A DNA stretch of 64,000 bases from Phyllosticta citribraziliensis (lineage: Eukaryota). A model generated the notes under the pieces. It worked only from the letters and a program-made list of their open reading frames with translations, was not told the DNA's origin and made no database searches. Shown here in pieces: positions 4,449 through 64,000 of the stretch. Position 1 is the stretch's first letter. Every line of letters starts with the position of its first letter. The position numbers were made by a program, and so were the translations under genes. The stretch covers positions 2,294,001 to 2,358,000 of the forward strand of contig NW_027117342.1 of assembly GCF_038025025.1 (NCBI RefSeq), read 5' to 3'.

Positions 4449-4454
4449 CCCGCC

Positions 4455-16752: not shown

Positions 16753-17076
16753 AGGTATGTTGCGCGATCAATGTTTACGGCGCGCGAGCGTTGGAAATAC
16801 AGGGCGGCGGTAGGGCCGGAGTCTGCGATACAAGATTTGTCGATGGTAGTAAGAGGACCGTTGGACTAGGCTGGTATATGTACAAGCGACAAAAGCTGAG
16901 TGAGTGAACTTCCGCAGGGTGGTTGGGTTGCGCGTGCTGTTGATGCGGGATGCAGTCGAGCTTTCCCGCGATCACCGACAAGGATTCGCGGCCCTGGCAC
17001 CAGGCGCGTCGCGGTCCGCTCCATGCCCTACTAACTTCACCACAACACGTCGACCACAAGCCATTGCTAACGGGCC

Positions 17077-28997: not shown

Positions 28998-29001
28998 CTA
29001 G

Positions 29002-33700: not shown

Positions 33701-34007
33701 AGTCTAAGTATTTATTAAGAATATTAAGAGTTACTAGTAGACTTAGAAATACCTATTCTAATATTTTAATATAACTACTATTAGTAAGGTATTCTTCCCT
33801 AAGGGCTAGAATTAGGGATATACTTTAATATAGACTACTAGCTAGCCTTTTAATTAATCTAATAGAGTATACTTAGTATCCTAGTATAATATAAGTACTA
33901 GGGGACTAAGTAATATAAAATAGGTAATCTACTTTAAGTAGGGTATACTCCCTACTCCTAACCTAAAAGGGTCTAGTTCTAGGTCCTACTTAAAGCCTAA
34001 GGATTAT

Positions 34008-34103
34008 TATAACTATAACTATAACTATAACTATAACTATAACTATAACTATAACTATAACTATAACTATAACTATAACTATAACTATAACTATAACTAT
34101 AAC
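34008..34103. repeat. (TATAAC)16 hexanucleotide microsatellite inside family C gag
   Basis: 16 perfect units are seen directly. Confidence 0.95.
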
Positions 34104-37100
34104 TATAAACTAACTATATATATATATAATACTATACCTAGGATAGTTCTAAAGGTAAGTATAAAGATACTAATAAGGGAAGTAAAGATACTAAAAGTAA
34201 TAAGAATACTAGTATAGAGACCCCTATAACTAATAAGGAGAAACTATAGTTAAATAATAGTAAGCCTATAATTATAATAGGAGCTAACTACTACTCCTAG
34301 TATAGATATATACTTATCTAGGATAATACTTTTAACTATACTCCTAGTAATAATATAATAGTACTTAATCCCTAAAAAGTATATAATAGCTACTAGATAA
34401 GCTTTCCTTTTAAATATAAATTATACTAGTACCTAAGGGATACTAGTTTTAAATATAGTTTAAACTAAGTAAGTATTAAGCTACTTAAGAACTTAGGACC
34501 TAAATAAAGTACTATCTAGTTAGTAGGTAACTAGTATCTAAAAGCTATTAGAATAATAGAACTAAATAATATATTATCCCTTTTTAGTATATCCCTACTC
34601 TAGTAGTTATAGCTCTTTAGTAGGTATTAATCTTTTCTCTTAGCCTTATAGTATAGGTAATATAGTACTATAAGTAAGGTACTCCTATACTTAATTAGGG
34701 ATACTATTACTAAATAGTCTACTTTACTATTTTAGGGTTTAATATAGTTAATAGTAAATATAGGAAGATAAAAGATAAGGCTATAATTAATATAGAATTA
34801 AAAGTACTAATCTTAAAATTATTTATAGCCTTTATAGGACTTAGTATAGGAGATAACCTATCTCTATTTCCTAAATATTAATTAATAGAGATTAGTTTTA
34901 GGCTAACCCCTATAGAAATAATAGATATTAGGTACCTTAATATAGGTACCTTATCCTTAATAGTAAATAGAATATTTTTAAAGGAAAAGCTCCCTAATAT
35001 TAAGGTAATAATATTTAAGAAACCTATAATTATTATTAAAGTAGAATATAAGATAGAATATACTAATTATATAATACTTCCCCTTTACTTATTTAGATAA
35101 ATTAAGATAGGATAGGCTCTTAGCTTTCTTCCCTACTATATTTAGATAATTAATAAGTTAAATATCCCTCTATTTATAGGAAATAACCTCCTATATCCTA
35201 AAGAGGTAATTATTAATATTAGTTAGAATTAAGTAGTATAGCTATATATAGGGCCTAAGGAATTAAATACTAGTATAATAACTAAGCTATTTTCTACTTC
35301 TATCTATTAATATATATATACTATAAAGAATATAATAATACCCCTATAGTCCTAGATAAAGCTACTTATTAAAATCCTAGGACTAGACCTCCTTTACTAA
35401 GTATATAAGTTCTATCCTAATAAAACTATATATCCTATACCTTTCCTATAAAAGAGAGGTACCCTTTATACTATAGTTACTAGTATAGATATAAACTAGA
35501 TTATTACTAGAAATAACTTAGATTAGTCTCTTATAATCTCTTAGAATATATAGCTAGGTAGTATTATTATAGTAGAATTTAATAGGGTATACTATCTTAT
35601 AGATATAAAATATAGCCTAGCTAGTTTAAATTCTACTATCTCTATTATAGAGGAGGCTAAGCTTAATAATAGTATTACTATATTTAAAACCCCTAAGGTC
35701 TAATTACTATACTAGAAACTAGTAGATTAGTTTTAAGACCTCTTTTATAATTAAAAGGGATTTATTAAAGTTTCTAAAAAGAATTAGATAAAAATATTAT
35801 TAGTTCTAGGCTAGTATAAATATTTTAAATATTAAAGACTATATCCTATATCCTAAAGGGACTATAAATTCTAAGATACTATACTTAACCCTATATATAA
35901 ATAAAGAAAGGTAGAATAGATATATAGAGATACTTATCTTAGCTTCTCTATATTTATAGTATAGAAGCTAGTCCCTAGAGAAAATAGGACCCTAAAGTAG
36001 AAAGGATAAGTAGTTATAGATATATAAGCCCTTAATACTATTAGTAAAAAGGACTTATAGCTACTCCCCTTAATTATTAATATTATCTCTAATATCTAGG
36101 GCTACCTTTATATCTTAGTAGTAGATATTATCTCTTTCTTCTATTAGTAGTAGATCTATTCTAATAACTAATATAAGCTAATTATACTTATCTACTAGAG
36201 TACTAAATAGTTAAATATAGCCCTAATAGGATACTATAACTTTATATAATATATATAATAGTAGTATAATACTCTTCTTTAGAACTACTATATATTTATA
36301 TAAATATATATTAATAATATTACTATTTTCTCTAAAATATTAGAAGAATACCTAGATTACCTTAAAAAAGTATTTACTATCCTTAATAGTATAAATATAA
36401 GCCTAAGTACTAAGAAGTCTTAGTTAGGGTACCTATCTATTATACTATTAGAATAGTAGGTATCTAGGTTTAGTATTATAATATTAGAAGCTAAGATTTA
36501 AGCTTTAAAAGACCTTAAATTTCTAAGGACCCTTTAAGAACTAGAAACCTTTATAGGGCTTATTAAATAGCTATAGGATAACTATCCCTATTATATATAA
36601 CTAGTAGAACTATTAGAAGCTATAAAGATTATACTATTATAAAGTACTTTTAAGGATAAGTAAGTATATTACTAATATATAGTAGTATAGGTATTACTAG
36701 ACTCCCTAGTATTAGTAGTATTATTTAAGGCTATATAGATAACCCTTTATAAAATATAATAGTATTTTTACTATATACCTAAGAGACCCCTCTTTATAGA
36801 TATAGATACTAATAAGGAGTTAGGTTCTAGTATAATAGTCTATTATATAAAAGATAATTCTAAACTAGTTATAGAAGACTAGACTCCTATTATAAATATA
36901 GAGAATATAGAGGGTAAAAACTATACTATAAATTAGCTTAAAAAGGCTAAGAACTTTCTAAAGTAGTTTATTAAGTTAATAGCCTTCTTATCCTAGTATC
37001 TTTTAAGAGCTAAGATAAGATACTAGACTATTAAGTTTAAGATAATAGGAGTTATTTAAGTAGTTAAGAAATTATAAATACTTATATAGGCCTCTAAGGA

Positions 37101-40100: not shown

Positions 40101-40702
40101 AGATAATAATAATAGTAGTATATTAGAGATATATATAAGGGAGTATAATACTAATTATAGTAATAAGTATAAGTATAAGTACTTTACTACTAAAGAGTTA
40201 GAGGAGGATACTAAGGATAAAAGAATATAGATACCTACCTTCTTATTAGAAACTATATCTTAACCTAGTCTTACCCCTAATCTAGCTATAAGCCTTATTA
40301 CTCCTTATAATCTTAGTTTAATACTAACTCCCTATAACTTTAGTATAGTTAGAGTAACTCTATAAATTAAGGTAAGCTATAATATAGTAGATATTACTAA
40401 TATAGACCTCTAGGCCTAGAATTTAGCTATTAGAGAGTAAACTTACTACCTTATTAATACTTTCTATAATACTAATAAGATTATTATAACTATAATTTAA
40501 TATATACTCTAAGCTCCTAATAATAATATAGACTTAGAAAAGGAATTCCTAGATACCCTAATACTAAGGCTAAGAAAAGAAAAGGTAGAACCTAAGAGAC
40601 TAGCTATACTATAGAAGATAAAGAAAATAGGGAAGACTACTAGTATACTAAATATTACTATATAGTTAAAGAAACTAAGGGGCGCACCTAATATTATACT
40701 AG

Positions 40703-43700
40703 TATAGTACTACTAGCTGGCATAGTTTTTATAGCTTTTAATAGTTATTTTTAGCGATTATTATTCTTATTCTTAGCTATAGTTTTAGCTTAGATATAAG
40801 TAGAAGATTAGGCTAGTAAGAAAATAAGATTATAGGTAGCTCTAGAATACTAGGAAGATATAGTTCTATATAGTTTAGTAGTAATAATAATAGCTAATAA
40901 AAGTATAAGTAAACTTAGCACCTTTAGTAGTAATAGGAGGTTTTATATTATTAGTATTTTAATAGTAGATTAGCTAGTTATATACCCCCTTTTATAGCTG
41001 CTTATTAAGAGGTACTACTTATATAAATAAAGTCTTTTATACTTAGTTAAACTATTATCTACTAAATACTTAGTTATTTATTTATTTATACTTATTATTT
41101 ATACCTAAGTCTTATACTACTTAGATAATAAAGTAATAGCTAGATAGTAGCTTATTTTAATTAGTTTAGTAGTTATTTTATTCCTATCTTATAGAGTCTA
41201 CTTATTTACTATTAGTTACTATCTCTTATACCTCTCCTAGTACTAGTATTTTAGCTAGCTAAGTAAGTATATTAGTAAGTAGCTAGTTCTATCTATATTT
41301 TATAGTATAGCTTCTATAGAATAGGAGCTTACTATTACCTAATTATATAAATATATAATAGTAGTAGAAATTAGGTAAGTAAAAGGCTTTAAGATATTAC
41401 TAATAAGTACTATTAATTTTACCCTCCCTTACCTAGCCTATTATTATATATTTACTATACTAGTTATTACTATTATACTAGTATTTATTTACTTATTTAT
41501 TTTAGGTACTATTTTATAGATATTATATAAGCTATAAGATTAATATTTATAATTTTATAGTAGGATAGTATATACTTTATAGAATAATAATACTATACTA
41601 TTTAACTTTAGCTAGTTCTATTTTTATTAAGTATAATATTATTCTAGGTATTTCTACCTATAAAGTATAGGGGATAAGCCTAGATAGTTAATTCTATAGT
41701 TTTTATATAGTTATATTATAGATTTTAGATTATTAAGGCCTATTAAGTTTCTAGGACTATTCTTTTATATTATAAGGTTAGTAGTTTATATAATAAATTA
41801 TAAAGGTAGATTTAGATATAATTATATAATAAATTTAATAGCTAGCCTATAAGAACTATAAGTTCTTCTAGTAGATTAGGAAGAAATAGAAGAGGAGGAA
41901 GAAGTATATTAGAAGGAGATAAAGGAAAAGGATAATAATCTAGTTCTTATAGTAGTAGGTACTCTTTTAGGGGCTAGTAGTAGGGGCCTATAATTATTTA
42001 AGGAGGACTATTTATAGTACCTCTATTACTAGTAATTAGTACTTAAACTCCCTTATAAGGTATAGTACTAGCTATAGGTTTATTTAGACCTTTTACTAGG
42101 CTAGATATACCTCCTATAATTATACTACTATTAGGAATAGATAGTAATAAAATAATAGTATTAAGCTAAGCTAATTAATTAATACTAGATACTATAGAAA
42201 TAACTCTCCCCTAGTCTAGTAGGGAGTTATTAATACTAATAGAAGCTAACTAATACTATATAAGAATAGCCTCTCTAATATATATAATTTTAATAAGCTA
42301 GATACTAGTACTAAAGTAAAGGCTATAATTTAAGGGAGATAATATATTATTATTCCTAGAGATATATAAATACTTCTATACTATAGTTAGGAGTCTTCTA
42401 GAAGAGTTTATACTAAAGCTAGTTTAATATTATAAAACCCTAATTAACCTAGAAATCTACTATACTATTAAGTTTTAGACTAGAGACTAGGAAGGTCTAA
42501 AAGTTTAGATATTAGTATAATATAAGAACTAAGATACTAGTATAATTAATAGGAACTAGAGCTATATTAAGAACTTAGCTAAGAGATATAAGGACCTCTA
42601 TTACCCCTTTAAAATAGATAAGTTCTTTAGACTTTATAAGATACTTAGTAATAAGGTAATAAAAGAAGGATATATTAATAAAAGCTTATAAGAGATATAG
42701 TTCCTTAATACCCTATATATAAATATATAAACTAGGTTCTTATAAAAGGGGTATTTAGCCTATAGAGCTAGGAATATTTAGTATCTCTAGTTATATATTA
42801 AGACCTAACTAGAATATAAATAGTATATAGTATTATACTCTATAGACTTACTAGAGATTATAAATATAGTTATATACTATATTAAGGGGCTAGACTATAT
42901 TATAGACCCTATACTAATAAGGAGAGGATACCTTTTAAGGTCTCCTCTATTATTTATAATATTATCCTCTAATAGCTCTTCCTCTATAATTATAGCTTTA
43001 AGTAAATAATTAACCTCTAAGACTAGGACCCCTTTAGTAAAGAGTAATAATATTATAGTTAAAGACCTAGTAGATAAGCTAGCTAAGATATATATTAAAT
43101 TAATCTAGGAGGCTACTAGCTATATCTATAAATAGCTTATAGATAGTAAGAAGTATAGGTATATTATAAGTAGTAGGGACCTATATATAAGGGTTATCTA
43201 GTTATTATTTCCCTATAATAGCTCTATTAGAATAGGCTAGCTAGCTAGATAGTATATACTACTACTAGAATAGTATATTCTATAAATAGGTCCTAGTCTT
43301 CTACTAATAAGGCTACTACTATCTAGGATAGCTTTTATAGGCTAACCTTAATATAACCCTAACTCCTATAACTAGGTAAGACTAGCTAGTTTAAATATAA
43401 ATTAAAGTATAGAAATAGGGGAATACTAGAGTTATAATAAGATAGGCTATATAGTTAGGAGTTATCCTATTCTATTACTATTTATATATACTAGCCTTAT
43501 ATCTATTAGTTAAAATAGATATATCTAGGACTTTAATAGCTAGCTAATATTAACTTATAAGTAGAATAAATAGCTAGATATTAAGAAGTACTTATAGTAT
43601 TAGGGGTAGATAAATAATAATAATTTATTAAAAATACTACTAGTACTAGAATAATAAGTAACTCCTTACTAGACTAAGGGAGAGTTATTATCTTAATCTA

Positions 43701-46700: not shown

Positions 46701-49700
46701 AAATAATATTATAAGAGGCTAATAAAGGAGCTAATATAATAATATAGAAAGTATAGTAGTAGGAGTTAGGTAATTTATACTTAAGTATATCTAGGATATT
46801 AATAGTATATTATAAAATCTAAAACTAGTTAGACTTATAATCTTAGGGGAAAAGTCCTTCTTTAGTATACTAGAAGTTAAAGTTATTAGATTTAAATATA
46901 GAGAATTTAGATACCTACTTATTAAGTCTAAAGTAGGTAAGATTAATAATTAGAATACTTTCTAAGACCTTAAATTATTAAGGGGCTTCTTAGGAGTAAC
47001 TACCTATTTTTATTACTAGGTTAAAGAGTACTTATATAAGGTAGTACTACTATATACTCTAATAAGGAAGAATATACTATTTATTTAGAAAAATAAGTAT
47101 AATAAAGCTATAGCTAAAATTAAAGAAGCTATTATAATAGTACCTACCTTAGTATCTATTATATATAGAGAGGAGTCCCTAAGAGATATTATTATAGTTA
47201 TAAATAATAGTAGTATAGGATAGGGAGTAGTTTTAATATAAGAGAAGGATAGTACTAGATATCTAGTAAGATATAAGAGTAGTATTTAGTCTAGAATAGA
47301 ATTATTTTATAACTCTAAGAAGCTAGAATACTAAGTACTAGTATATATAATTATTAGATTTAAACTATAGCTATTTAAATAGTACTTCCTTATTAAGATA
47401 GACTATTATATCCTATAAGACTACTTAAATAGTAGGACTAAATTTATAATAGGTAGAGTCTTTAAGTAGTAGCTTAGCTAGCTATCTATATAGGATTTTA
47501 AGATACTATATATTACTAGGATAAAGAATAGGGTAGTAGATATATTATTAAGGAGGCTAAATTTTAAGGAGTTAAGTAAGAAAGACCTATAGAAATAGAT
47601 AGAGAAGATAGAAAATAAAATTAATAAGTTATTATTATCCTTATAGCTAAGTATATATATAATTAGTTCTATAAACCTCCTACTAACTATCTACTAGGCT
47701 AGGGGAGAGTTAATATTAGCTAATTAAATACTAGTACTAGGCCCCTCTAGCCTACTAGGAGAGGTTATTCTATATAAAGTACTATATAAGGAGTACTCCT
47801 AAGAATCTAAAGATCTAGCTAAATTTATTACTTATAGCCTACTCCTATCTAAAGTTAGCTATAGTTTAGAATATAATCCCTACCCTTAATAGGAGTCTTA
47901 CTACTCTATTTAGTATAGGTTATAGCTAGTATCTAGACCTTACTAATACCCTACTTAGTAAATTTAAGGCTACTAATAATTTAGTTACTAATAGCTCTCT
48001 CTTTAGCTTCTTAAATAATATATACTTTAAAATTAATAAGGAGTTTAGCTACTACCTCTAATACTAGTAGAAAATTAATACTTACTAAAATCTAGGCTAG
48101 AACTATATAATATTCTACTTACTAGTATAGTAGCTTATTTACTAGTACCTAGTATACTAGCTCCTATATATTTTACTTAGGCCTAATTATACTTACTAGC
48201 TCTATATAATACTATACTATATAAAGGACTAGAAGAAGGGTAACTATATTAAGTTCTACTACTTTAATATTAACTTAAATAACTATACTAATACTAATAG
48301 GGGTATTAATATAATTTAGGGTACTATCTCCCTTAATAGTAAGACTAATACTAACTATATAATTTTAGTAGAGGGCTTTATACCTTATTTTAAGGATTAT
48401 AGGGATAATACTATTACTAAGAAGGTATATAACCCTATAAATATAACTAATATTATTAATATTAAGAAGGGTCCTATTCTTAACTACCTTACTAAGTTTA
48501 TTAAAGATAGAGGCCTAAGTTAGTCTAATAATAAGGTAGTAGCCTATAGTACTAGGATTTTCTACCTAATAATACTATATAGAGCTAAGGGCCTAGTAAA
48601 GGGTATATATAAGATAATCTTCCTATAGTACTATAAAGTTAACTAGAACTATAATTATCTAGAAATTAATAAGATAGGTACTTAGGTAGAGCTAGTAGTA
48701 TACTATAAAAATTAGGTCCCTTTTAAGGTTATACCTACTAGTTTCCTATATATATATAGCTATTACCCCTATAAGTTTTTAGTATTAGTAGAGGTAGTTA
48801 GTATTAATCTAATTAATAATACTTTAGTCTACTCTTATTACTAGGACTCCCTATTAGTTATAAAGGAAGTTAAGAAGGTTATAAATATAGCTAGTAATTC
48901 TAAGGTATTAGTTAACTATTTCTATAATATAAAGCTAGATATAATTAATACCTATAATAAGCTATTCCTAGTCTTTATTAAAGAAGAGAGGTATATCTTT
49001 AGTAAAAAGTCCTACTTCTACTATAAGGATAATAATATTACTAGGCCTACTCCTAATAAGCCTCTATTAATTAATAAGGATATTATTAAAGCTATAGGTA
49101 TCTAGTACTATAATAAATATAGTAAGGATAAGGACTAGGGTAATATATTACCTACTAGCCTAGTTTATAAGAGTATATATAACCTAGATAAGTAGTATAC
49201 TAACTAGCTACTCTAATTTAGCCTCTTATAGACTATAGCTTATACTTTCTCTCTTACCTTTTATCCTTATTTCTTCTTACTTACTAAGGGATAGTAAAAT
49301 AAGGAGTACCCCCCTATATATAGTACTACTAGCTAGTATAGTTTTTATAGCTTTTAATAGTTACTTTTAGTAATTATTATTCTTATTCTTAGCTATAGTT
49401 TTAGCTTAGATATAAGTAGAAGATTAGACTAGTAAGAAAATAAGACTATAGGTAGCTCTAAAGTACTAGGAAGATATAGTTCTATATAGTTTAGTAGTAA
49501 TAATAATAGCTAATAAAAGTATAAGTAAACTTAGTACCTTTAGTAGTAATAGGAGGTTTTATATTATTAGTATTTTAGTAGTAGATTAGCTAGTTATATA
49601 CCCCCTTTTATAGCTACTTATTAAGAGGTACTACTTATATAAATAAAGTCTTTTATACTTAGTTAAGCTATTATCTACTAAATACTTAGTTATTTATTTA

Positions 49701-49913
49701 TTTATACTTATTATTTATACCTGAGTCTTATACTGCTTAGATAATAAAGTAATGGCTAGATAGTAGCTTATTTTAGTTAGTTTAGTAGTTATTTTATTCC
49801 TATCTTATAGAGTCTACTTATTTACTACTAGTTACTATCTCTTATACCTCTCCTAGTGCTAGTATTTTAGCCGGCTAAGTAAGTATATTAGTAAGTAGCT
49901 AGTTCTATCTATA
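40703..49913 (+). mobile_element. Family A Gypsy element, 9211 bp, two 595-bp LTRs (40703-41297, 49319-49913), CTAG TSD, integrase missing
   Basis: Direct LTRs with CTAG at 40699-40702 and 49914-49917. De-RIP motifs: protease ALVDTGAN (~45.17 kb), RT DLYSGFDQ and FVDDI (~46.5-46.7 kb), RNase H (~47.2-47.55 kb). Similarity to the 29 kb copy stops at ~47859. Confidence 0.92.
47860..49216 (+). pseudogene. RIP-inactivated PhyH-like 2OG-Fe(II) dioxygenase ORF inside family A element
   Basis: One frame (codon starts = 2 mod 3) de-RIPs to ...NLGW..MFHSLAQQLIRQHPAYWLLYVSLRPD...PYYAKD...FRHFD...GRGVNMIQGTISLDGE..DCT..VEGF...PHGAKGPA.GVRKTIFPWY...RWDSP. HxD falls at 48260-48268, the distal His at 48578 and an Arg at 48608. 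Ends are approximate. Confidence 0.7.
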
Positions 49914-51908
49914 CTAGATAAACTAGTAATAGTTAGTCCCTAAGGTAAAATAGAAGACTAGTTATTTATAAAGGAAAGTATATACTATCTATTCTATAAC
50001 CCTAAGACTTTTATAGAGTATAAATAGGACTAGGATACTATATTCCTTATAGATACTAGTAACTTTCCTATTATTAACTATATTTTAGATATATTTATTA
50101 AAGATTAGTACCTTCCCCTACCTAGTATAAGCCTATCCTCTATAATAATAGGTACCCTCTACTACTTAGCTTATTAAGTAATAATAGATCTAAAGTTCTA
50201 TAACCTCTACTAACTCTAGCTATTTTACTATAAAGATAGAGGACTAAACCTATATTATTACCCTAATAGATAGGCCTTATACTACTAAGATAAGGATAGT
50301 AAGATCTAGTATATAATACTTATAAGGTAGTATAGACTTATTAGTAGGGAAGGCTATAATAAGTATATTAGTAGGAAGAAGCCTAGTAACCCTAATATTA
50401 ATAAAATATACCTCTAGGTAATAGGAGGCCTTACTATCTATAATTATAATAGACTACTTTTCTCTATATATATAGATATCCTAGTCCCTAAGAGTATAAA
50501 GCAGCACCTTTATAAATAAGAAATATAGAATAGAGAAGGCTATTATACTCTTATAATAGACTATATAATAAGAGGTAATATACTACTAATAGAGCTCTAT
50601 ATATTTACTACTACCCTTATAAAAAATAGGAATAAGTAGTCTATAGGTACTAAGTTCTATACTCCTAGAGTAGGAGTAGGTTAGTACTAATATAATAGTC
50701 CTATTAATAATAATAAGGTAGAGCTTATAGAGATACTTTAAGATATACCCCCTCCTAATAAGGATATAATATTATAGGATATAAAACTTAAAGGCCTAGA
50801 TAAGCTTACTCTATAGGTTTACCTAGACTACCCTAACTATACTATATTTATAGTAGATACTAATAATACCCTACTTATAACTTAGGATAAGCTACTTTTA
50901 GCTAAACCTAATAATAATAGTAATAATATTAGTTCTAATACTAGTATAAAAGACCCCTTAATCCCTAATAATAGTCCTACTAACTATAGTAATATAGCTA
51001 ATACTAGTAAAGCTACTTCCCTAGGATACTTAGTAAACTATATAATCTATTAATATCCTAACTTAGGTAAAGTAGGCTCTCTCTACTAATATATAGACCT
51101 AATAGCTATACTCCTTATAATAGAACCTTACTAAGCTATATACCTTATTATTAGAGGAATTATCCCTAATAAGTTTATCTCTTATATAGTAGTTAAGAAC
51201 CTTACTTTCTATATAGGATTAAACTACCTAATCTAGTATATTAGAGAGGACCCTCTAAAATATATATAAATTACTAGGCTATTTACTTTATAGCTACTTA
51301 TACTATATATACTATAGGATATAGATAGTCTAGAGTAATAATTCCTAGGTACTAATATTAGGTTTACTAACTAGTTTATAGGCTATATTCCCTTAGGATA
51401 CCTTTATCCTAATTTCTATATAGATATAGGTATTACTATATATTATATACCTATACTAGGAGAGGATAAAAGTAGTTATAGTACTAATATATAGAAGAAC
51501 CTACTTATCTAGTTATTAGCCCTGCCTTATAATAATAATATAATAGGTAGTAAGGACTAGTTTAATATAGATAAAGATAGAGAGGCTAGTAACTAAATAT
51601 ATTCTAGTATAGACTTATTTCTTTCTTTCTTTACTTCTTTTCTTTCCTTTCTTATCCTAGAAGGGGGATATTTTATAATAGATAGAGGAGGATAGTAAAT
51701 TTTAAGTTAAGGATAACTCCTTTTTTTAGCTACTACTATTATAGTCTATAGATAGTTAGGGACACCTTAGGTAAGTAAGGCAGGTACTAGCTAATAGGCT
51801 TAGAAGTATAAGTAAGTAGATAGAATAAGTAGGGCCCTAGGGCCAAGATAGAAATAATAATAATATAATCCTTACTTAAGAAAAGACATCCTAACTAAAC
51901 TTATAACA

Positions 51909-54900
51909 TTATATAACTAAGCTATACCCTATAATTAGACTAATTAGGCCTTAGCTAAGTAGGATATCCTACCTAATAAGCTAGAAGAGCTAGAGGAAAC
52001 TATCTTATATAATAATACTTATACTAAGAAAAAGGGAAAAGGAAAGGGAAAGAAGTAAAGTAAATAGATAGTAGAGAATAGTTCTAAGTAGTAAAAAGGA
52101 GAGACTAGAGAGTAGAAGTTAAGGTTAATAGTATTTATATAAGGGTAGATAGTAAACTAATTAGTCTACTTTCTATATCTTTATAATATTTATTTTAGAC
52201 CTAAGTAACTTATTTTTTTATTACTTATTATTTAGGGCTATTCTTATAGGAAGGTAGTCTTCTATTTTTCTAGATTTTTAGGTAGTCCTACTACTATTAG
52301 GTAGGAAGAGTAGAACTCTTTAATTCTCTATAGTATACTACTAAAAGAACTTATATTATACTACTAATTATCTTAATTATATCTAGTCTATTATACTTAA
52401 TATTAAAGTTTTCTATATAAGACTTAGCTAGCTTAAATATAGTCTACTTCCTATTTAGGCTTATCTTAAATAATCTTAAGTTCTAGTTTAGTATACTCCT
52501 AACTAGGAAGTTTCTCTATTAAGGCTTTATAGAGTCTATTAGTATAGAAAAGATTAACTATCTTTATATATAAGGGAAGGTTAAGGATATATAAAGGTCC
52601 TTATATCCTTAAAATCTAGAAAGGTCTAGTATTTAGAAAGTCTAATTTTAGGTTTAGCTAGTTAGTAGACTATCCTATTTTCTTAATATAAATATAATCT
52701 CTAACTATAAAGTCTAGTATATAATAGTATTTATTAGCTTATTAGTATATATACTCTTAAGATTTAAGAATAAGGTTCTTAGTAAACTTAAAAGCTTCTT
52801 ATCTTCTTTTTTATAGTATTTATACTACTATATAAGCTATTTTCTCTAGAGCCTAAGGAATCTCTATTTATTATTACTAATTATAATATATTTATAGGGA
52901 ATATCCTAATTTAATCTTAAAGGGGGAAAGTCTAGTAGCTTTATAAGGAAGTATTACTTATATAAGGTCTATAGAGGGTAGAAGGCCTAACTAGTTATTC
53001 TAGAAATAGTTAATAAAAGGTCTTAGCCTTTATATAAGGTACTAATTAATAATTTCTATAATACTATTAGTTTAAGAGTAATATAAGGAGTTAAAATACT
53101 ATTTAATACTAGTAAGCTTATATAGTCTATTTATAAATATAGAGATAAACTATAGGCCTTAGTTAGAAAGGATAGACTTAGGATTTCTATAGATATAGTA
53201 GATATACTTATAGAAGAGTCTTAAGACTTCTTTAGTATTAATCTTCTTTATATAAGGTAAACTAAAGGTCTATTAACTTAACTACTCTACTATAACTAAG
53301 ATTATATTATAGCCCTTTTAATTCTTAGGTATTTTTTAAAAATCTATAGCTAAGTATTACTAGGGATAAGTAGGAATCTTAAGAGGTTATAAAAGGCCTA
53401 GATCCTTATTATAAAATTCTTTAGTTTAATAATAGATATAGTATCCTTATCTATAAATATCTATTATATAATATATAGTAGGCTAATAGTAATATTATTT
53501 AAAGAGTTTATATATTTTTATAATACTAGGGTATATAGTTATATATATAGTATATAAAGTATTAAGAGTTCTTATATAGAGGTTATCTTAATCTAGTATA
53601 AAGAGAGTACTATATTATAATAAGAGACTATCCTTTAGTTCCTAACTATTTCTTTATTCTAGGTCTTTTTATTAAGTTTATTATCTCTAGAGTTTAGATT
53701 AAGGATCTTCTCTATTTATATAGAGAAGTTTATCTAAAAATAGTACTAGAGGTAGAAGGTCTTATTCTATAACTAAGAGAGGGATAATAGTTTCTAGAAG
53801 AATAAGGTATATCTCTTATATAGCTTTTATCTTTTCTTTCTAAGTCTTTAGGTCCTCTTATTTTCTAGTAAGATAATTAGTAATAATATTTTCCTTTTCT
53901 AGTTAGTAGGAGAATTATATATAGAATTTAGTAAAGAATTTAGACTATCTAGCCTATTATTAGTTAAGTTATTATTTTATAGAGTAATACTCTAGTACTT
54001 AATAGTCTATAATTATAAGAAAAGGGTTTTTAAGGCTAATAAGTATAGGTCTCTATTCTTCTAGCCTATTCTTAATAGCTAATAGTTCTTTATCTAAGAT
54101 ACTATAGTAAAGTTCTATATAAGCTATTACTTTAGAGTAGAAGGCTACTAGTTTCTATTTATATAAAGGTTTTTAGAGCTATATTAGAATACTAGTAGTA
54201 ACTCTATTACTTATATCTATCTCTATATAAGTATTAAGAGTAGGATTATAGTTTATAAAGAGTATATTACTATATATAAGCTTCTTAAATTCTTAGATTA
54301 CCTCTTCTTCTAGTAGTCCTAGTTATTACTATTTTATCTTAAAGTATAGCTTCTCTAATAGCTAGCTAATCTATCTATAGTTAAGAAGAAATTATTAATA
54401 GAAATTATAGAAACCTAAGAAGGATTAAAGAGCCTATAGAGTTTTAGGTACTAGCTAGTTTTATATAGGTTCTACCTTATTAGGATCTATTTAAATACTA
54501 TCTATAGATATAATATATCTAAGAAACTTTATATAAGTAATAGAAAATTTACTCTTTTTAAGATCTATCTAAAGTCCTACTTTCTATAGTCTTACTAGTA
54601 CTTTCTTTACTTATTCCTTATATTCTATAGGGTCTTTAGAGATAATAAGTATATTATCTATAAAAGCTACTATAAAATTATCTAAATACTTAAAGAGAAC
54701 TTAATTAATAAATTATTAAAAGGCTATAGGTCTATTACTTAATCTAAATAGAAGGATATAGTATTTAAATAAGCTATACCTTATATAAAAAGTAGTCTTA
54801 TTTTCTAAGTTTAGTATAAGTTAAATATAGTAGAAAGCTTATTAAATATCTAGCTTTATATAAATTTTACCCTTTCTAATATACTAAAGTAACTCTAAAA

Positions 54901-55583
54901 TAAGAGGAAGAGGATATAAATCCTTAGTAGTTTAGTAATTAAACTATTAATAATCTATATAAAACCTTTATCCTCTACTAGGCTTTTTTACTACTAGAAT
55001 AGAAGAAGTAAAGGTAGTAAAGCTTTCTATAATAAAGCCTTTTTAAATATTTTCTATAATATATTCCTTTATAGCTTATAGCTACTCTAGAGATTTTCTA
55101 TAGAGGGGACTAGGGGGAAGTTCTAGTAGACCCTTATATATAAGAGATATTTTATAATTAACTCCTATATAATATAGTAGAAGCTTATTTAACTTAGTCT
55201 TAGAGAAGATATCCTAGAATTCCTTTTAAGTAGAAGGTAATTTAGAAGCTAGTAATTCCTTAGTTTCCTTATCTTTAATAGCTTATTAAACTTATATAAG
55301 ATTTATAGTATAAATCTCTATTAGTATAACTTATAATTTATAGATAGAAAGTTTAAAAGTATCTTAGGTTTAAAATTTAATTCCCTTAATAACCTATACT
55401 AAAGAAAGAAGGTATTTATTAAAGTTTTTATCTCTTTAATTTATATCTACCTAGTATTCTTTCTAAGGTATATTACTTTATATAGAAACCTTTAGTAGTT
55501 ATAAAAGATATTAAAAGGATTAGTTAACTAGTAGCTATCTCTAGACTAGTTTATATTTTTTATAGTTAGAAAGAATATTATAC
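51909..55583 (-). mobile_element. Family D Gypsy chromovirus fragment (RT, RNase H, integrase, chromodomain, tail of antisense ORF)
   Basis: De-RIP minus strand gives LFEYLDDFVVAFVDDVLI (~54.65 kb) and chromodomain WEVDRI...LQYQVQWTGY (~52.3-52.45 kb). 51940-52630 aligns with 63300-64000. Confidence 0.88.
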
Positions 55584-58500
55584 TGTGAGACGGCGGAGTG
55601 GACTCAGCTTAGAGACTGCCTTAGGCTTGCTAATATTATATGACGCGCAGGGATTAAGGAAGAAGTATATAGTCTGGCCTTATAAACTTAGTCTAGAGAG
55701 AGGGGAGTAAAAAATAAATATACTCTTTCTATACTAGAAGTTCCTACCTAAGGTATAGATTTTCTCTCCTTTATTTAATATCTTTTTCTACTTATTTAAA
55801 CTTAAAAACCCTATCTAAAAACTCTATACTATTTTAGAGAAAATAAATCTTAGTCCCTATTAGGAAATATAAATAATAGAAAGATTAAAAGAGCTATTTA
55901 TAGAAGGTTATTATAGAATAAAGAATAGAGCTATAAATTTAGAATTACTAAATAGAGTACTTTAGAAAAACTAGGTATTTATATAAAATTATATAATTAG
56001 TTATATAATTAATCTCCTCCTACTAAACTAGATAATTTTCTAGGAGATAGTTTTTATTAAGGAGTCTTTACTAGTAGAGTTATTTTCCTAAGGTCCCTTC
56101 CTAGGCTAATAAAATTAGTGACTATACTAGGGGGATAGTATACTAGGTACCCTACTTAGTATATTTAAAGGGGTGAATCTAGACTAGAAAACTATACTAA
56201 AAATATTAAGGAATTTTAGCCTTACTTATAACCTTAATAATATCCTTCTTAAAAAAATACTATAAATAGTAATCTTTACTATAAAAATAGAAGTATAATA
56301 AAGATTAAGGGTAACTTTAAATATTAGAACCCTCTTAATAAAAACTAAGTATATAATAAGACCTTTATAACTAAGCTTAACCCTTTTTTTAAGAAGGAGA
56401 AAAGGGATTAGCTATATTAATAATTAATATAAGTAGAAAAATATCTAAGATAGACTTAATCTAGAGTAGTTATAAGGAAACTACTAGTAGTTTAAGATAG
56501 ACTTTAACTAAGAAGGTTATAATCTAGAGTAGTTATATAAAGAGAAGGAGTACTAAAGGAAGAGAAAGAAATAACTATATATAGAAGGGATAAGTAAAGT
56601 ATATAAGGTTATAGTAGCTATATATAATAGAAGTAAATATATAAGAGATAAGAGTAAGTAATAGTTATAAAGGAGGGGATATTAAATAGTAAATAAGATA
56701 TAAGATATAAAAAGATTAATTAAATAATACTTATAAGGTAAATTTAATTTAATCTACTTTAGTTAACTATCCTTATCTTTTAGTTCTTTTATCTTTTATT
56801 AAAGAAAACTTAGAGTAAAGTAAGAAGCTTTTAAGGTTTAGAGTAACCTTACCTCTAGTTTCTAAAACCTTATTATTATTTCTAGCTAGAGTACCTACTA
56901 TATTATATCTTTAATTAGGTTATCACATTCTATTAAGTTCTTTAAATCTTAGATAAAATTACTAAAAACAAATCTTATTTACTTAGAACCAGTTCTAAAT
57001 AATATCTTTATATTACCTTATTTAAATCCTACCTAGTTAAACCCTCATTATTTAACCTTAAGAAACTAAAGATCTTTTACTAATACTTAAATTTAACTAA
57101 GACTTATAGGAACTTAAGAAGATTACTAAAAATACCTAAATTAAATAAGTTAAGTTATCCCTTAAAAAGATTACTCTTAAATAGACCTTTTAAAACCTTA
57201 AAACTAACTTTAAACTTATCTTCTACCCTCTCTCTAAAGAATATTATTACTACTTTTTAATAATAATAGGATATAATATAACTTATTATTAAGAGATTAG
57301 ATAAGAAGAGCTAAGACTCTATAATATAATATTAGAACTATAGAATCCCCCCTAGTTATTAGCTATACCTTTACCTCTAATTAGTTCTAGGTACTTCTTA
57401 GCTATATTAATATCTATTAAACCCTAACCTCTAGTAGAGAAATATCCCTTCTATAATAAGCTATTATAATTAAATAACTACTCCTAAAGTATAGAACTAC
57501 TATCTACCTACTCTTTATTAAGAAATAAGCTATAAAATAGATATATAACTTTAAATATCTTCTTAACTCTTATAGATATAATAACTAGGCTAAATATATA
57601 GAATTAGTTTAATATTTTAAAGGAAGGGATAACTACTAAGTAGTTAAAATTAAAAAGATAGGGAAGGAGGGGAATTAAAAAATCTTTAAAGAATAATTCC
57701 TTATTAACTACTCTAAAAGAGACCTAGAGAAAGATAAAGAAACTCTAAAGTAGCTTTACTACCTTATAAAGGAAAAGAAGAATCTTTAGAATAACTAGAA
57801 GTACTTTTATTAGTACTAGTAAATATATAAAATAGACTCTAAACTAGTTAAGAAAAAGGGATTTATAATAGAAACCTAATAGATTAAATTATTCTTTAAG
57901 GGCTATCTAGATAAAGATATAGTATAGATTCTTAAGAAATATAATTTTATATAAAGTAAAAGAGATAACTAGTCCTAAGATAAACTAGTTAAGAATATAA
58001 ATAGAGCTAAAGAAATTACTAAAATATTAGAATAAGTCTAGGCTAATAACTTAACTTATTAATTTAAGTATTTACTCTTATAATATCTTAAGCTAGACCT
58101 TAAACTATATAAAAAGATTATCCTAGATTTTAAATTAAATAAATATATTAAACCTTCTACCTTTATAAAACCTATAGCTTTTAAAGAAGGACCCTCTAGT
58201 AAGGTAATTATTAATAATTTTAGAAACTTATTATACTAAGAATTAAACCCTAGTATAAAGGATATAGAAGAACTCTATAAATAGTTTTCCTATCTTAATA
58301 TTAATATAGCTAAAGCCTAATATACTCTTAAATTTAATCCTTACTTTACTTATATATATACTAATAAGGATCTTTATTACTATTACCTCACTTATATATA
58401 CCCTTAATTATATAAATATAATCCTTTAACTAGGCCTTATTAAAATAATTAGAACTTCTTAGCTCCCTTAAATAATTAATAATATCTAATAAATAATTAT

Positions 58501-61301
58501 ATAGAGGTACTACCTAATAGGTAGAATAGATAACCTATTTACTTTATATATAAAGAGGGTAGATATCTTATTTAGAACTATCTAAAAATTAAATTCTATA
58601 AAGATTAAGGCTAGATATATAAATATAAGAATAACTACTTCTCCATTAAAAAAGCTAAGGACTATACTCTATTAATACCCTTAATTATTATTCTAAGAGA
58701 ATTTAGTATAAAAAAGCTAAAAGCTATTAAGTAGGAGTTAAAATAATATAGCTATCTAATTTATAAGTACTAAAAGCTACCTATAAAGAATATTTAGAGT
58801 AATATTACCTACTTCTATAATCTCTACTATAGGCTAGACTAAGAAATAGATATCTTCTTCTTAGGTAACTTAAGAATTATAAGAGACTTTAAAGTTAACT
58901 ACTTTAAGATAAATACTATAGGTATAGATAGAAATATTTATAGCCCCTAATATCTTTAGCCTAATAAGATCTAGAAAGGAAGAATTAAATAACTAATAAA
59001 GGCTTTAGACTTAAAGGTAGGTATTAAATTAACCTTTAAAAGAGCTAAGGTATATAGAAATCTTTATTTTAAGGAGCTTAAAGAAGAATAGGAGGTAGTT
59101 CTAGCTTTTTAACTATAAAATAGACTACTAATAATAGACTAAATTAACTAACTAACCTTTTACTAGACTTTTAGAGTTACCTTACCCTAGATATAAGATA
59201 ATAATATAGATATATAAGATATAAAAGTAGCCCCTAAAAAGGGACCCTCTAGTAATAAGGATACTTAGCCTAATACCTACCCTCTACTTCTTATTAACTC
59301 TCTCTTCTAACTATTATAAAGGGAGATAGTAATTAACTTCTTTAATTAACCTAAAAGCTTCTTAGAATAGAATAAGCTCAAACCTATTATAGATAAGCTT
59401 CTATATTTAAGATTTAATATTAAAGGAATCCTAATAAGGACTATTAGAAATACTATTAGTACTATTTAAATTAGCCTAAGAAGGAGTAAAACCCCTATTA
59501 AAATAGATATAGACCTAATTAAAATATATACTACCCTAATTAATAAAGAAAAAGTTAGTATTAAGGTAATAACTCTAGTTAATAATAGAAGAACTAAATT
59601 AGTTAAAAAGAGTAGACTCTATAATAACTATATAATCTTTATAGCTAAGTACTTTATTATATTTATAGAAAGGATTATAAATAATTAAGTAAAAGAAAAA
59701 GAATAAGCTACCTACTAGAATAAGATTTTTAATAAACTAGAAAAGGAATTTAATACTATAAAATTATACCTACTAGGTCTAGGAAGACTATTCTATCTAA
59801 TCTTTCTAAGAATTATCCTAAGATACTACTAGAAAGGAGAAGACTTATTAGATAATAATAATATATAAGAAGTCCTAAGCTATATAGAATAGTTAGGAAT
59901 AAGGTAATACTAGTATAAAAGAAAAATTATTAAGGATAGATAGATTAGGCTTTATATACTAGAAAGAATTATTTAATATCTTAAATATTAGCTTAATTAT
60001 ACTTAAAAGTAGATTTAAGAATCCTCTAACTAGATTAATAAAAATATATATAGGTATTTTAAACTAAATCTACCTTTAATATTAACTAGACTACCTAAAG
60101 TAATACTATAGCCTAAAAACTCTAAACTAGTTTAGAGTAATTAGATAAAAGAAGAAAAAGCTAGTTTAGAAGCTCTTTTATAGCTTATAAAGGAATAGGG
60201 TTATTAATACTCCTATATAGAGAAAGAGTTCTAAAAGAGGCTAAATAGCTTTATCTTTAATAGAGGAGTCTATAAAGAAGTAAATATTATTTATAAAAAG
60301 AAATAGATAGGTTATATTATTAACTTAGATAAACCCTTAGAGATTATATACTAAGAAAGAGGTTAGGTAGTAGAAGTTAGATAGCTAGAATAAGTTCTTA
60401 TATAAGTTACTAAGTATAACTATATTTAGCTCTATCTAGAAGGTCTAGATTTTAATTATCTAGTATTAAGTATAGAACTAAGGATCTAGGAATTTAATTA
60501 AGACTAATAACTATTTCTAAAACCTATTCTAACTACCTTACTAGTTAGATTTAGAAAGATTTATAGTAAGAGTTCTACTCCTATAGAACTAAAGAAAAAG
60601 AAGTAAAAGTTCTATATTAATACCTTTACCTATAGGCTAGAATAGTACCTAGGTAAAATCTATTATAACTATACTCCTAGCCTAATAAGTACTAAGGTCT
60701 TTAAAGAAGAGTAGAGTATTAGTTATATTCTATTCTATTATAATCTTCTATATATTCTAATTAGTATTAAGATACTCTATAATATAAAAGCTCTTCTAGA
60801 TACTAGAGCTAAGATTAATATAATTTAATAAGATATTATAGAAATAAGTAGTATTATAATTATAGATATACCTAATAAGCTTTAGGATAATATAATAATT
60901 AGTATAAGTAGATAAAAGGGAGAACCTTTTAGATAGTAGATACTAGATTTAGCTATTTTAATTAGAGGAGTACCCTTTAAAGGAGTATTCTTTATTAGCT
61001 AAGAGATAACTTAGCTAATTCTTCTTAAATTACCCTAGCTCTATTAAGTAGGTTTTATATTAAATCTTTTCTTAAATAGACTTACTAAAGGATAACTTAC
61101 CTACCCTAATAATAAGAGCTATATTAATTTCTATCTCTCCTTCCCTAATAGATAATTAACTTAAGGAATTAAGTATAGCTTAAGCTATTATTTAAAAGTT
61201 TAATTTAGAGTTTAGAGTTTATACCTTTCTTATCTTTTCCTATATTAGTAATCCCTTTACTAGATTAAAATAAACTACCTTCCTTCCTTAATTCTAAGTT
61301 T
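55584..61301 (+). mobile_element. Family F Gypsy 5' part: putative long LTR (55584-56927), gag and protease, cut by a family D insertion
   Basis: TGTGAGAC start at 55584 and TATCACA at 56921-56927 (TGTGA...TCACA inverted termini). A long coding-like phase runs ~57.3-61.1 kb with ALLDTGAEINVI-like protease motif at ~60.79 kb. The second LTR is not in the window. Confidence 0.7.
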
Positions 61302-64000
61302 TATCACGACTCGCAGATTTCTTGTTATACAGGTAAGGGCTAAAGGTGAACTGCTAGAGAATACATATATATCTTAATTAAATCTAATAAGTTAAAAGAA
61401 TAAAATATAAAAGATACTTACTACCTATATATTTCCTAGTCCTTCCTTTATACTATTCTACCTCTTATCCTTTATATAAGGGTCCTTGGTTATTATTAGG
61501 TGAGTTATAAAGGTAAGGTGTTAATAGGCTGTTATATAGTATCTACCTAGGGCTGTAGTGGCTAGTACCAGGCTATAGTAGCTAGTACTAGCCTATAGGT
61601 TTCAGCCTAAGCTGTAGTAGGCTGCTACCTAAGGTGAGGCTTGTGCTTCTTATAACTGCGCGATACTAGGTTTGTCTATACTGGCCCTAGTACTTATATA
61701 GGTATATATACGCCTATTATGACATGCCCCCCCTAAAGAGAAGCTAAAATTATAGGAATTAGCAGCTGTAGGCGCTTGCGCAGGTATAGACTTGTGATAT
61801 ATAATAGTAGTAATTTGGCAATTTAAGCGTTCTATATAGTTATAAAGTATAATTATTAGTCTAGGGCTACTACTATACTATCTCTTTTTCTATTACTATC
61901 TCTTTTGCCGCGTGACCTATAGAAGGTTACTATCTTACTTAGCTATATCTAAAGCTCCCTATTAAAGTATGTTGTTACCCCAGTCTAATTTAGCTATAAT
62001 CTAGTAAACTAACTATTACGCGTAAAGGTTCTAATAATTTAAATAATTTATACCCTACTAATAGTAAAGCAGATATTCCTAGCTGCTGTATACTTAATAC
62101 ATCTACTACTTATTATGGTCTAGTCTGTTAGGACTTATTACTATTATATAAGAGTTATAGTATTAAGTTATTATTATGCGGCGTTATTCGCGATCTATTG
62201 CAGTTACTACTTACTTAAAGAGCTGTTTTAGCTAGCAGTATCTATAAGGACTATTATATAGAGTCCTAAGGTAAGTAAACTTTAATTCTATCTCTAACTA
62301 TTACTAATTATTATCTAGGCTATCAAGTAGCATTATATATCTAGGTTTTACTACTTTATCATCCTATCTTGCCAACTAATATAATTATAGAGGAGGACAC
62401 TTATATAAAGACTTAGTCAGGCTAGGCTTTACTTATTTAGCTAGGAATAGCTATAGGCTTATTACTTTACCTATAGTATACTATAGTATTAGGTTCTACT
62501 TAATCAGCATTATTAGTTATCGCGCGAGGTTTATCATCTATAGCTATACAGCCTACTACTAACTAGCCTATTATACTATATCACTACTGGTTCGCTATTG
62601 CACAGCCTGTTTTAGAGGAAGAAGGTAAAGAGCCTACTTATATATACTATTATTATAATCCTGTAGCTTATCAGGTTCTAGCAGCTAAGTACTTACTGCC
62701 TGCTGCTTTATATAATAGCAGTAATAGTAAGATTCGCGTTATAGTGTCACTAGTTAGCTCTAATAAGGCACCTATTAAGTAGGACTTTAAGTCAATACTT
62801 TACATCCCTTATAAGAATATAGAGAGTGTCGCGCGAGTAAGTTTATCTTACTAATATAAGGGATTCTTATCTAACTAATTATATAGGTGCGCCTTAGTAG
62901 TTCTAAAGTACAAGAGCGCGCTAAATATATCTTGGCCTTAGGTAATAGTATACCTTACTTATATATTATAGTTTCTACTTAGCAATTTAACTACTTATTA
63001 GTTAAAACTTAAGCTAGCTTGCGCGATACTTTTCTTATCTAGTATACTAGAATTAATAACCCTGTCAGCTATACTAAGTATTATAATAATACTAATACTT
63101 ATGTGTTTATTAGTTATTACTACCTGCCTAGTTTCTTATAGGGCCGCTGTACTAACTACCTTTAAGGTACAGGCAACCTTAACTATACTATAAGTGACTT
63201 AAAGGGTGCCAAGCCGCCTACTTATTATAAGAGGCATGAAGATAAAATTTATATAGAGGAGTTCTAGAACTTGCGCTACTAAGCTAGGGTAGAGGATTAA
63301 ACTAATTAGGCTTTAGCTAAATAGGACATCCTACCTAATAAGCTAGAAGATCTAGAGGAGACTATCTTATATAATAATAGTTATAATAAGAAGAAGGGAA
63401 AAGGATAGAAGTAAAGGGTAGAAAGTAAAGAAGAGGGAAGTAGGGAATAAGTAGTAAAAAGAAGAGACTAGAGAGTAGAAGTTAAGGTTAATAGTATTTA
63501 TATAAGGGTAGATAGTAAACTAATTAGTCTACTTTCTATATCTTTATAATATTTACTATAGGCCTAAGTGACTTGTTTTATTATTACTTTCTATTTTAAT
63601 CTATAGTTCTTCTTAGAGGAAGGCAGTCTTCTATTTTTCTAGATTTTTTAGTAGTCCTGCTATAGTAGGGTGTAATGAGTGGAATTCTTTAATTTTCTAT
63701 AGTACACTACTAAAAGAACTTATATTATACTACTAGTTATCTTAGTCATATCTAGTCTATTTAACTTAGTATTAAAGCTTTCTATATAAGACTTGACTAG
63801 CTTAAATATGGTCTACTTCCTACTTAGGCTCGTCTTAAATAATCTTAGGTTCTAGTTTAGTATATTCTTAACTAGGAAGCTGTTCTATTTCAGCCTTATA
63901 TAGCCTATTAGTATAGAAAAGGTTGACCATCTTTATATATAAGGGAAGATTAAGGATGTAGAAGGGTCCTTCTATTCCTATAATCTTAAAAGGTCTAGTA
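61302..64000 (-). mobile_element. Second, less-RIPed family D element: 423-bp 3' LTR (61302-61724), PPT, accessory gene, chromodomain/integrase end; continues past window
   Basis: T(A)TCACGAC...TATGACA termini. The adjacent tgccccccctaaagagaag is a PPT on minus. Homologous to 51940-52630. Confidence 0.88.
61945..63414 (+). pseudogene. Antisense, intron-containing accessory gene of family D with DUF3716-like Cys cluster
   Basis: Intron-like segments 61967-62027 (GTATGT..CTAAC..AAG), 62271-62318 (GTAAGT..CTAAT..TAG) and 62837-62886 (GTAAGT..CTAAC..TAG). The last exon de-RIPs to C-A-K-C...F-I-G-C..LPGF..G-R-C-A-N-C...C with a KKKGKGRK* tail. Confidence 0.68.

Follow-up and report, generated by a model that had tools for sequence, protein, structure and literature searches.

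Does the 3′ end of a decayed retrotransposon in the Dothideomycete Phyllosticta citribraziliensis conceal a gene of its own, running against the element and interrupted by introns? The question is raised by positions 61302–64000 of a 64,000-nt stretch of contig NW_027117342.1 (hereafter the window), where a preliminary description had proposed a plus-strand gene relic with three introns and a DUF3716-like cysteine pattern, lying between the chromodomain and the polypurine tract (PPT) of a minus-strand Gypsy element present in two copies. We found that positions 61302–64000 are the 3′ part of a single minus-strand Ty3/Gypsy chromovirus insertion mutated by repeat-induced point mutation (RIP), that an extra stretch of about 1.8 kb lies inside this element between pol and the 3′ long terminal repeat (LTR), and that the extra stretch is probably the remnant of a spliced gene, now dead, on the other strand.

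A RIP-mutated chromovirus insertion

The insertion at 61302–64000 is referred to here as copy 2 and the other copy of the element in the window as copy 1. Their features are as follows.

61302–61724, minus strand: candidate 3′ LTR of copy 2, 423 bp, with a TGTCA start, a TGATA end, the highest summed contig depth and a step in RIP level at 61300
61725–61739, minus strand: PPT, with a G8 run at 61727–61734 (plus strand CCCCCCCC), 2 nt from the LTR start
63553–64000, minus strand: 3′ end of pol of copy 2 (integrase C-terminus and chromodomain), from tblastn of P0004 and P0009, running off the window
52268–55282, minus strand: pol of copy 1 (reverse transcriptase, RNase H, integrase, chromodomain), RIP-saturated, in one frame throughout
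51933–52631, minus strand: copy 1 counterpart of about 63295–64000, broken at about 51912–51928, at the end of another repeat

The pol of copy 1, read with stops as X, had 867 protein homologs at E ≤ 1e-5, of which the best fungal ones show 33% identity over 94–95% of the region and carry RVT_1, RNase H, H2C2, rve, SH3-like and Chromo domains, and it gave Pfam matches of its own despite RIP (RVT_1, 2.2e-11; RT_RNaseH_2, 1.6e-08). Using the homolog P0004 (1318 aa, with Pfam Chromo PF00385) as a tblastn query, we placed residues 284–1285 on 55282–52268(−) and residues 1167–1295 on 63993–63607(−); the segment of P0004 from residue 1167 to 1295 finds its counterpart in copy 2 at 63993–63607 and in copy 1 as far as 52268. 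The match to residue 1295, together with a double stop in the reading, places the end of pol in copy 2 near 63553. The order reverse transcriptase, RNase H, integrase and the chromodomain at the C-terminus of integrase are those of a Ty3/Gypsy chromovirus.

Positions 61739–61720 of the minus strand read CTTTA-GGGGGGGG-CA-TGTCA, a PPT followed by a typical LTR start, and the LTR end TGATA (minus strand, 61306–61302) differs by a single CpA-to-TpA change from TGACA, which is the reverse complement of TGTCA. The orientation of both the LTR termini and the PPT agrees with that of the Gypsy pol. A search of the window in a purine/pyrimidine alphabet found no second copy of this LTR at ≥80 bp and E ≤ 1e-10 and no LTR for copy 1, and a looser run returned only noise.

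Between 63296–64000 and 51934–52631 the two copies are 85.6% identical, rising to 94% when bases are compared by purine/pyrimidine class, as would fit RIP transitions causing most of the differences. The part of the gene reading common to both copies is its last ~120 bp, and the stops TAA 63412–63414 and TAA 52056–52058 stand in the same GAAGTAAAG context, which bears out the earlier observation that the 3′ end of the gene is present twice. Copy 1 is without the remainder of the extra stretch because it has been cut, since similarity begins at about 51915–51928, directly past the end of a repeat at 51912. This repeat of ~180 bp (51732–51912, equal to 30784–30964) contains an unmutated GGGCCCTAGGGCC, and its right end is the break of copy 1; the repeat probably forms one end of whichever element cut copy 1 short.

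The extra stretch is internal to the element

The position of the proposed relic between chromodomain and PPT, and its strand relative to the Gypsy element, were confirmed by tblastn, by the reading of LTR and PPT and by contigs. That the stretch belongs to the element, as had also been claimed, follows from its uniform RIP level, from bridging contigs, from depth and from the orientation of LTR and PPT. The sum of CpA and TpG was zero in all five 300-nt segments of 59800–61299 and 7–21 (ratio 0.24–0.69) in all nine segments of 61300–63999; there was no step at 63290, and the LTR segments right of 61300 held 14–20 CpA+TpG per 300 nt. Copy 1, by the same count, is RIP-saturated (0/60). Because the RIP level is uniform and breaks at 61300, the LTR, the extra stretch and the pol tail share one mutation history, younger than that of their surroundings. 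The step at 61300 is also a simple marker of a younger insertion within older RIPed DNA.

We mapped Logan contigs from four public runs (X1, X5, X7 and X9, of which X7 and X9 represent two other organisms) onto 58000–64000. In run X1, summed depth was 0–6.4 up to 61215, 518–650 at 61216–61617, 25–140 at 61618–63426 and 155–247 beyond, while run X5 gave 4–71 over the accessory stretch and 43–89 over the pol tail. Compared with the pol tail, the extra stretch had about a third (X1) or a half (X5) of the depth, contig depth not being copy number. The 603 contigs of run X1 fell into likeness classes of 178, 226, 175 and 24, and their differences comprised 207 transitions versus 23 transversions. 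Position 63296, where similarity between the two copies in the window ends, was spanned by contigs from X7 (record 23, 63182–63475) and X9 (record 30, 63182–63337), and further contigs continued into pol (X7 record 24, 63335–63592; X9 record 31, 63359–63557). At the other end, two contigs with identical 30 loose letters, one of 693 nt from X5 and one from X7, diverged from the window near 61300; by our reading, the 15 letters nearest the element differed by transitions only and the 15 farther out by transversions, which points to another insertion site.

Among related metagenome loci, 10 of the 41 examined had an LTR pair around pol, with distances from pol to LTR of 50, 71, 76, 77, 79, 109, 226, 394, 1454 and 4213 bp, that is, 50–394 bp in eight of the ten. 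In copy 2, 1883 bp separate the end of the pol match from the 3′ LTR. Relatives are mostly without the extra stretch of about 1.8 kb. In one relative with an LTR pair, L064, pol and the 3′ LTR lie 1454 bp apart (5295–6747), and the interval contains a poly-Lys/poly-A run and short open reading frames (ORFs) on both strands, with no Pfam family.

Exons, introns and reading frames on the plus strand

Read on the plus strand, the extra stretch has the following proposed parts.

61740–61963, no strand: spacer of about 220 bp from the PPT to the point where the gene is proposed to start, which by position only may hold a promoter
61964–62270, plus strand: proposed exon 1, weak, frame 2, no start codon identified, 5 stops in 102 codons
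62271–62318, plus strand: intron candidate 1, 48 nt, GTAAGT..CTAAC..TAG, frame 2 kept
62319–62836, plus strand: proposed exon 2, frame 2 (coordinate mod 3 = 2), with the fewest stops of six frames and the best codon-frame score
62837–62886, plus strand: intron candidate 2, 50 nt, phase 0, GTAAGT..CTAAC..TAG, frame 2 to frame 1
62887–63414, plus strand: proposed last exon, frame 1, with a Tyr/Cys segment at 63070–63186 and a charged tail, ending at TAA 63412–63414
63415–63552, no strand: spacer of ~140 nt between the convergent ends of gene and pol, from the pol reading and tblastn

The strict intron pattern GTRAGT..CTAAC..YAG occurs nine times in the 84 kb of strand length of the RIP region, and two of these lie on the plus strand of the 1.47-kb gene, where about 0.16 would be expected. 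The 50-nt intron shifts the reading from frame 2 to frame 1 and so exactly joins the two frames that independently ranked best, a coincidence of one in three if taken alone. At least one intron is needed to connect the two best frames, and its length is right for this. Instead of the three introns originally proposed we count two, which have full signals (62271–62318 and 62837–62886); a third candidate, of 41 nt at 62942–62982, was rejected, since it would put the reading in frame 0, which has the most stops (34 in 175 codons), and would break the exon with the Cys pattern. Frame 1 runs through 62887–63414 without any third intron.

Frame +2 of exon 2 has 8 stops in 172 codons, compared to 16–24 in the other frames, and frame 1 of the last exon has 12, so that both rank lowest or nearly lowest in stops; TGA is absent from the proposed frame of either exon. 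A codon-usage frame classifier trained on RIPed pol was correct for 35 of 46 held-out windows of 60 codons and 38 of 42 of 100 codons, and when trained on copy 1 it picked the correct frame for the pol tail of copy 2 (42.2 vs 21.6 bits). It ranked +2 first at 62319–62836 (20.0 bits per 100 codons) and +1 first at 62887–63414 (16.2 bits, next 9.9). Only the ranking of frames within a scored window counts here, since the RIP level distorts absolute scores. In the last exon the plus-strand reading is hydrophilic and charged, and the antisense reading there is hydrophobic and stop-rich. Overall, the evidence that the plus strand is coding is of moderate strength. At 63406, the T of the window, which makes a TAG in the gene tail, corresponds to A in all contigs covering it in four of four runs, a transversion private to copy 2 and not attributable to RIP.

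The Cys/Tyr segment and homology searches

Frame 1 of the last exon reads Y-x2-Y ... Y ... G-R-C-T-N-Y ... Y over 63070–63186, with the sole remaining Cys codon at 63148. The Cys pattern of the preliminary description thus consists of one Cys codon plus Tyr codons. Tyr in place of Cys is expected, because TAT and TAC are one TpG-to-TpA change from Cys codons and because the RIPed pol of copy 1, at columns invariant among 12 homologs, showed Cys changed to Tyr in six of six cases; aligned Trp had become a stop in eight of eight. A version of the pattern with the core G-x-[C/Y]-x-N-[C/Y], a core chosen post hoc, matched once in the RIP region (GRCTNY, 63142–63159). The last exon probably encoded a small Cys-rich, zinc-binding domain followed by a charged tail, as judged from its reading. 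Its last exon has 12 stops and Tyr codons in place of Cys codons, and this copy of the gene is non-functional. The basic tail, formerly suggested to be a nuclear localization signal, is weak evidence for one, as RIP-type G-to-A changes can make Lys codons from Glu.

We likened the domain to DUF3716 (PF12511, a 59-position fungal domain with a Pfam hidden Markov model (HMM) cut-off of 22 bits) on the basis of the family motif, a conserved Cys spacing with invariant G and C, and this identity is presumed. The likeness would lie in the Tyr/Cys spacing and in a G-x-C-x-N-C-like core near the C-terminus; unlike a member of the family, the reading has no HMM match. Stop-masked six-frame readings of 54–64 kb and short pieces yielded no DUF3716, and the reading of the gene gave no Pfam match at E ≤ 10. 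A word-index protein search with the last-exon reading gave 202 candidates and none at E ≤ 10, and an exhaustive phmmer search of 1.84 billion representatives gave three matches at E ≤ 0.001, none credible and none with DUF3716. One of these, P0122, has tandem repeats and a CARD_2 domain, and the other two show scattered similarity with no significant stretch, P0123 being visibly repetitive. Membership in DUF3716 was thus not detected by Pfam, phmmer or word search on the RIPed reading. These negatives carry little weight, because Pfam applied to the RIPed pol likewise misses the integrase, H2C2 and Chromo domains, and the chances that the domain is DUF3716 are about even. As another candidate, the fungal Zn2Cys6 cluster (PF00172) was rejected: its third Cys, six residues past the second, is not found, 63100–63102 is Tyr here and CGC (Arg) in other copies, as read from loose contig ends at 63099 and 63105, and there is no Pfam match.

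A strict Cys motif gave two irrelevant matches in 53 of 80 related metagenome loci, 27 short or partial loci being excluded, and a relaxed motif gave three matches in all 80 (465,307 nt), one of which, in L048, was antisense and downstream of pol. L048 has two antisense ORFs at 7174–8012(−), beyond the end of pol at 6765, one with C-x2-C-x6-C-x11-C-x2-C-x6-C and the other charged and helix-like. No LTR pair was found there, and the ORFs may belong to a neighbouring host gene.

Weighing the alternatives

The explanation that we favour, and consider fairly probable, is that 61302–64000 represents a RIP-inactivated chromovirus with a dead antisense accessory gene of at least two exons joined by a 50-nt intron. 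Introns of such a gene would occur in genomic RNA only as reverse complements, such that they would remain unspliced and be copied into each new insertion. The intact gene may have been transcribed towards pol from the ~220 bp beside the PPT, or from the LTR; an antisense promoter in the 3′ LTR, which the preliminary description called for, is not required given the space at 61740–61963. The product could have been a nuclear factor binding nucleic acid or chromatin and serving the element. The more specific suggestion of an anti-silencing role was not supported.

A number of results weigh against this explanation. Exon 1 and a start codon are unsupported, with a codon-frame score for +2 of only 1.3 bits per 100 codons. 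The frame classifier is weak (74–78% correct at 60 codons); it scores the antisense frame −2 of exon 2 close to +2, at 18.3 bits per 100 codons, and when trained on copy 1 only it scores non-coding LTR windows as high as the exons. Even in RIPed pol, counting stops per frame does not single out the true one. Matches to the looser intron pattern number 0.35 per kb per strand, and one or two of them lie on the minus strand of the gene region as well. As for the domain, the loose [C/Y] pattern matches 84 times in the six frames of the 42-kb RIP region, Tyr in RIPed pol also replaces His (six of eight aligned) and Arg (seven of 25 aligned, with a further 10 of 25 Arg turned to stop), and 63100–63105 reads CGCGCG in other copies compared to TATGTG in the window, so that one of the ‘Tyr’ is Arg. 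No homolog of the gene reading was found in any search (Pfam, word-index, phmmer). In the 53 related loci, the strict motif found no antisense CxxC-type ORF downstream of pol, and the ORF in L048 is Zn_clus-like rather than DUF3716, itself a weak match (E 0.07, 13.7 bits vs a cut-off of 21). Finally, no 5′ LTR was seen for copy 2, as it lies outside the window, and hence no LTR pair; the bridging contigs of X7 and X9 could stem from an orthologous locus rather than from independent insertions; and contig depth served solely to show that the stretch repeats together with its neighbours.

Many of these points would be accounted for if the 1.8 kb were non-coding internal sequence, such as a long 3′ untranslated region, and the ‘gene’ a matter of seeing patterns in AT-rich RIPed DNA. 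On this view Tyr-rich frames and the words GTAAGT and CTAAC are common in such DNA. The loose patterns for both Cys/Tyr and introns recur by the counts given, the LTR also scores high with the classifier, there is no homolog, and the extra stretch of L064 shows that an interval of this kind can be without a recognisable domain. We nevertheless regard it as unlikely, since the strict intron signals exceed their expectation in the gene, the length of the 50-nt intron fits the change between best frames, the last-exon reading differs in character from its antisense and the G-x-C-x-N-[C/Y] core is unique in the RIP region. A coding stretch could instead lie on the sense (minus) strand, as a third ORF, env-like or otherwise, downstream of pol. 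Minus-strand frames score well in 62380–62922, and frame −2 of exon 2 reaches 18.3 bits per 100 codons, but that frame has 24 stops in 172 codons, three times the 8 of +2, sometimes with two or three stops in a row. The codon signature of a true frame is often mirrored by the frames antisense to it, and no Pfam match was obtained; we consider a sense-strand ORF very improbable.

The remaining alternative accepts a gene and denies that it is part of the Gypsy element: 61302–63290 would be another repeat, such as a class II element with a DUF3716 gene, or a captured host gene, which either adjoins or interrupts a truncated Gypsy copy, or entered an ancestral element and multiplied along with it. 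DUF3716 genes do occur in an IS3EU class II transposon (PMC8232023), no more than ~120 bp of the gene is common to the two copies in the window, and depth in X1 falls to about a third of that of the pol tail. Against this, both copies would have to have been cut at the same base by different events, and copy 1 instead abuts a third repeat; the RIP level is uniform over 61300–64000, the LTR termini and PPT face the stretch in Gypsy orientation, contigs span 63296, and among the best-supported loose ends listed none is near 63296. In its several forms taken together, this origin appears quite improbable, and we retain the antisense accessory gene of the chromovirus as the best explanation.

Genomic setting of the window

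The window consists of a GC-rich gene block at 1–22 kb (GC 0.50–0.63) followed by 42 kb of AT-rich DNA (GC 0.22–0.32), with an isochore border at ~22 kb. The AT-rich part bears the fungal RIP signature, with a TpA/ApT ratio of 1.77 compared to 0.55 in the gene block and a (CpA+TpG)/(ApC+GpT) ratio of 0.02 compared to 1.26. The gene block (1–22000) encodes a bZIP protein (4449–5852, plus strand), a BTB protein (8744–9589, minus strand), an Ish1-repeat stress protein (11045–12385, minus strand) and a 767-aa ORF without family (14467–16767, minus strand). The Ish1-type protein has 90% identity to that of P. citriasiana, 87% to that of P. capitalensis and ~70% to Botryosphaeriaceae proteins.

Other repeats are found in the AT-rich part. 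Direct repeats of 598 bp at 40702–41299 and 49318–49915, identical in purine/pyrimidine class and 8.6 kb apart, probably represent the LTR pair of another retroelement; this repeat occurs twice more, inverted and in tandem, at 27859–29005, and a further block of 544 bp is common to 28998–29541 and 47315–47858. About 100 nt at 34006–34108 are their own reverse complement in purine/pyrimidine class and may be a RIPed palindrome. A further Gypsy-type pol integrase fragment is present at 25204–25671(−) (tblastn E 1e-5 to 1e-8).

Comparison with known systems

Extra antisense sequence between pol and the PPT and 3′ LTR, here with moderate coding evidence, matches the known layout of antisense additional ORFs, as in brtn of Boty and aORF-3R of plants. 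We know of no sequence relation between the plant antisense ORFs and the gene here. LTR retrotransposons seldom carry extra genes, and what these do is obscure even in the plant and Botrytis cases; a further fungal example would bear on how retroelements gain and retain host-like genes. The copy described here is dead, and it is of use for pointing to intact relatives rather than as a working gene.

In plants, a review of additional ORFs in LTR retrotransposons (PMC7264820) names Grande, RIRE2, Retand and PvRetro13 as elements whose antisense ORFs lie between pol and the 3′ LTR; these ORFs agree with the extra ORF here in position and orientation; some of the products are nuclear (GENE23 of Grande), and a regulatory role has been proposed, their function being unknown. 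The plant elements differ in belonging to Tat/Retand-type lineages rather than to fungal chromoviruses, and the word ‘intron’ is absent from the main text of that review.

Among fungal mobile elements, two DUF3716 genes are reported inside REP9, a class II IS3EU transposon of Zymoseptoria tritici (PMC8232023). REP9 would be alike only if the domain here is DUF3716, as a fungal mobile element with a DUF3716 passenger that has no signal peptide; it is unlike in being a DNA transposon whose gene is intact, expressed and assigned to DUF3716 by domain search, compared to a resemblance in motif here. Our literature search found no paper linking DUF3716 to an LTR retrotransposon. It is rather unlikely, in our estimate, that the relic is a true DUF3716 gene which a Dothideomycete Gypsy family regularly carried in antisense and with introns, such that DUF3716 recurs in both element classes. 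If this were so, DUF3716 would be a zinc-binding nuclear factor used for the element’s own regulation or for countering host silencing, the patchy and expanded DUF3716 family of fungal genomes would be explained, and the family might include brtn of Boty. Another fungal case beside Boty, from a different fungal class, with introns kept by antisense placement and a possible tie to a domain family already known from a DNA transposon, would offer a testable lead on the role of DUF3716 proteins.

The closest parallel in layout is Boty/BcGypsy1. Zhao et al. 2011 (Virology 417:248) reportedly described brtn in Boty of Botrytis cinerea and Sclerotinia sclerotiorum. Named matches among the best 120 to the pol of copy 1 included no Botrytis, and Boty and the element here were likened by layout; they differ in host, Leotiomycetes compared to a Dothideomycete, and in that the copy here is dead. 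The antisense gene brtn sits between pol and the 3′ LTR of Boty (PMC7264820), is present in BcGypsy1/Boty-like elements with gag, reverse transcriptase, integrase and chromo domains (PMC8365987, PMC4227169) and has a resembling transcript in Monilinia (PMC5987419). Boty/BcGypsy1 is thereby a fungal Ty3/Gypsy chromovirus (gag, protease, reverse transcriptase, integrase, chromodomain) with an extra antisense gene between pol and the 3′ LTR, like the element here. An antisense gene in a fungal Gypsy element is therefore already known from Boty and its brtn, and the element of P. citribraziliensis is another case.

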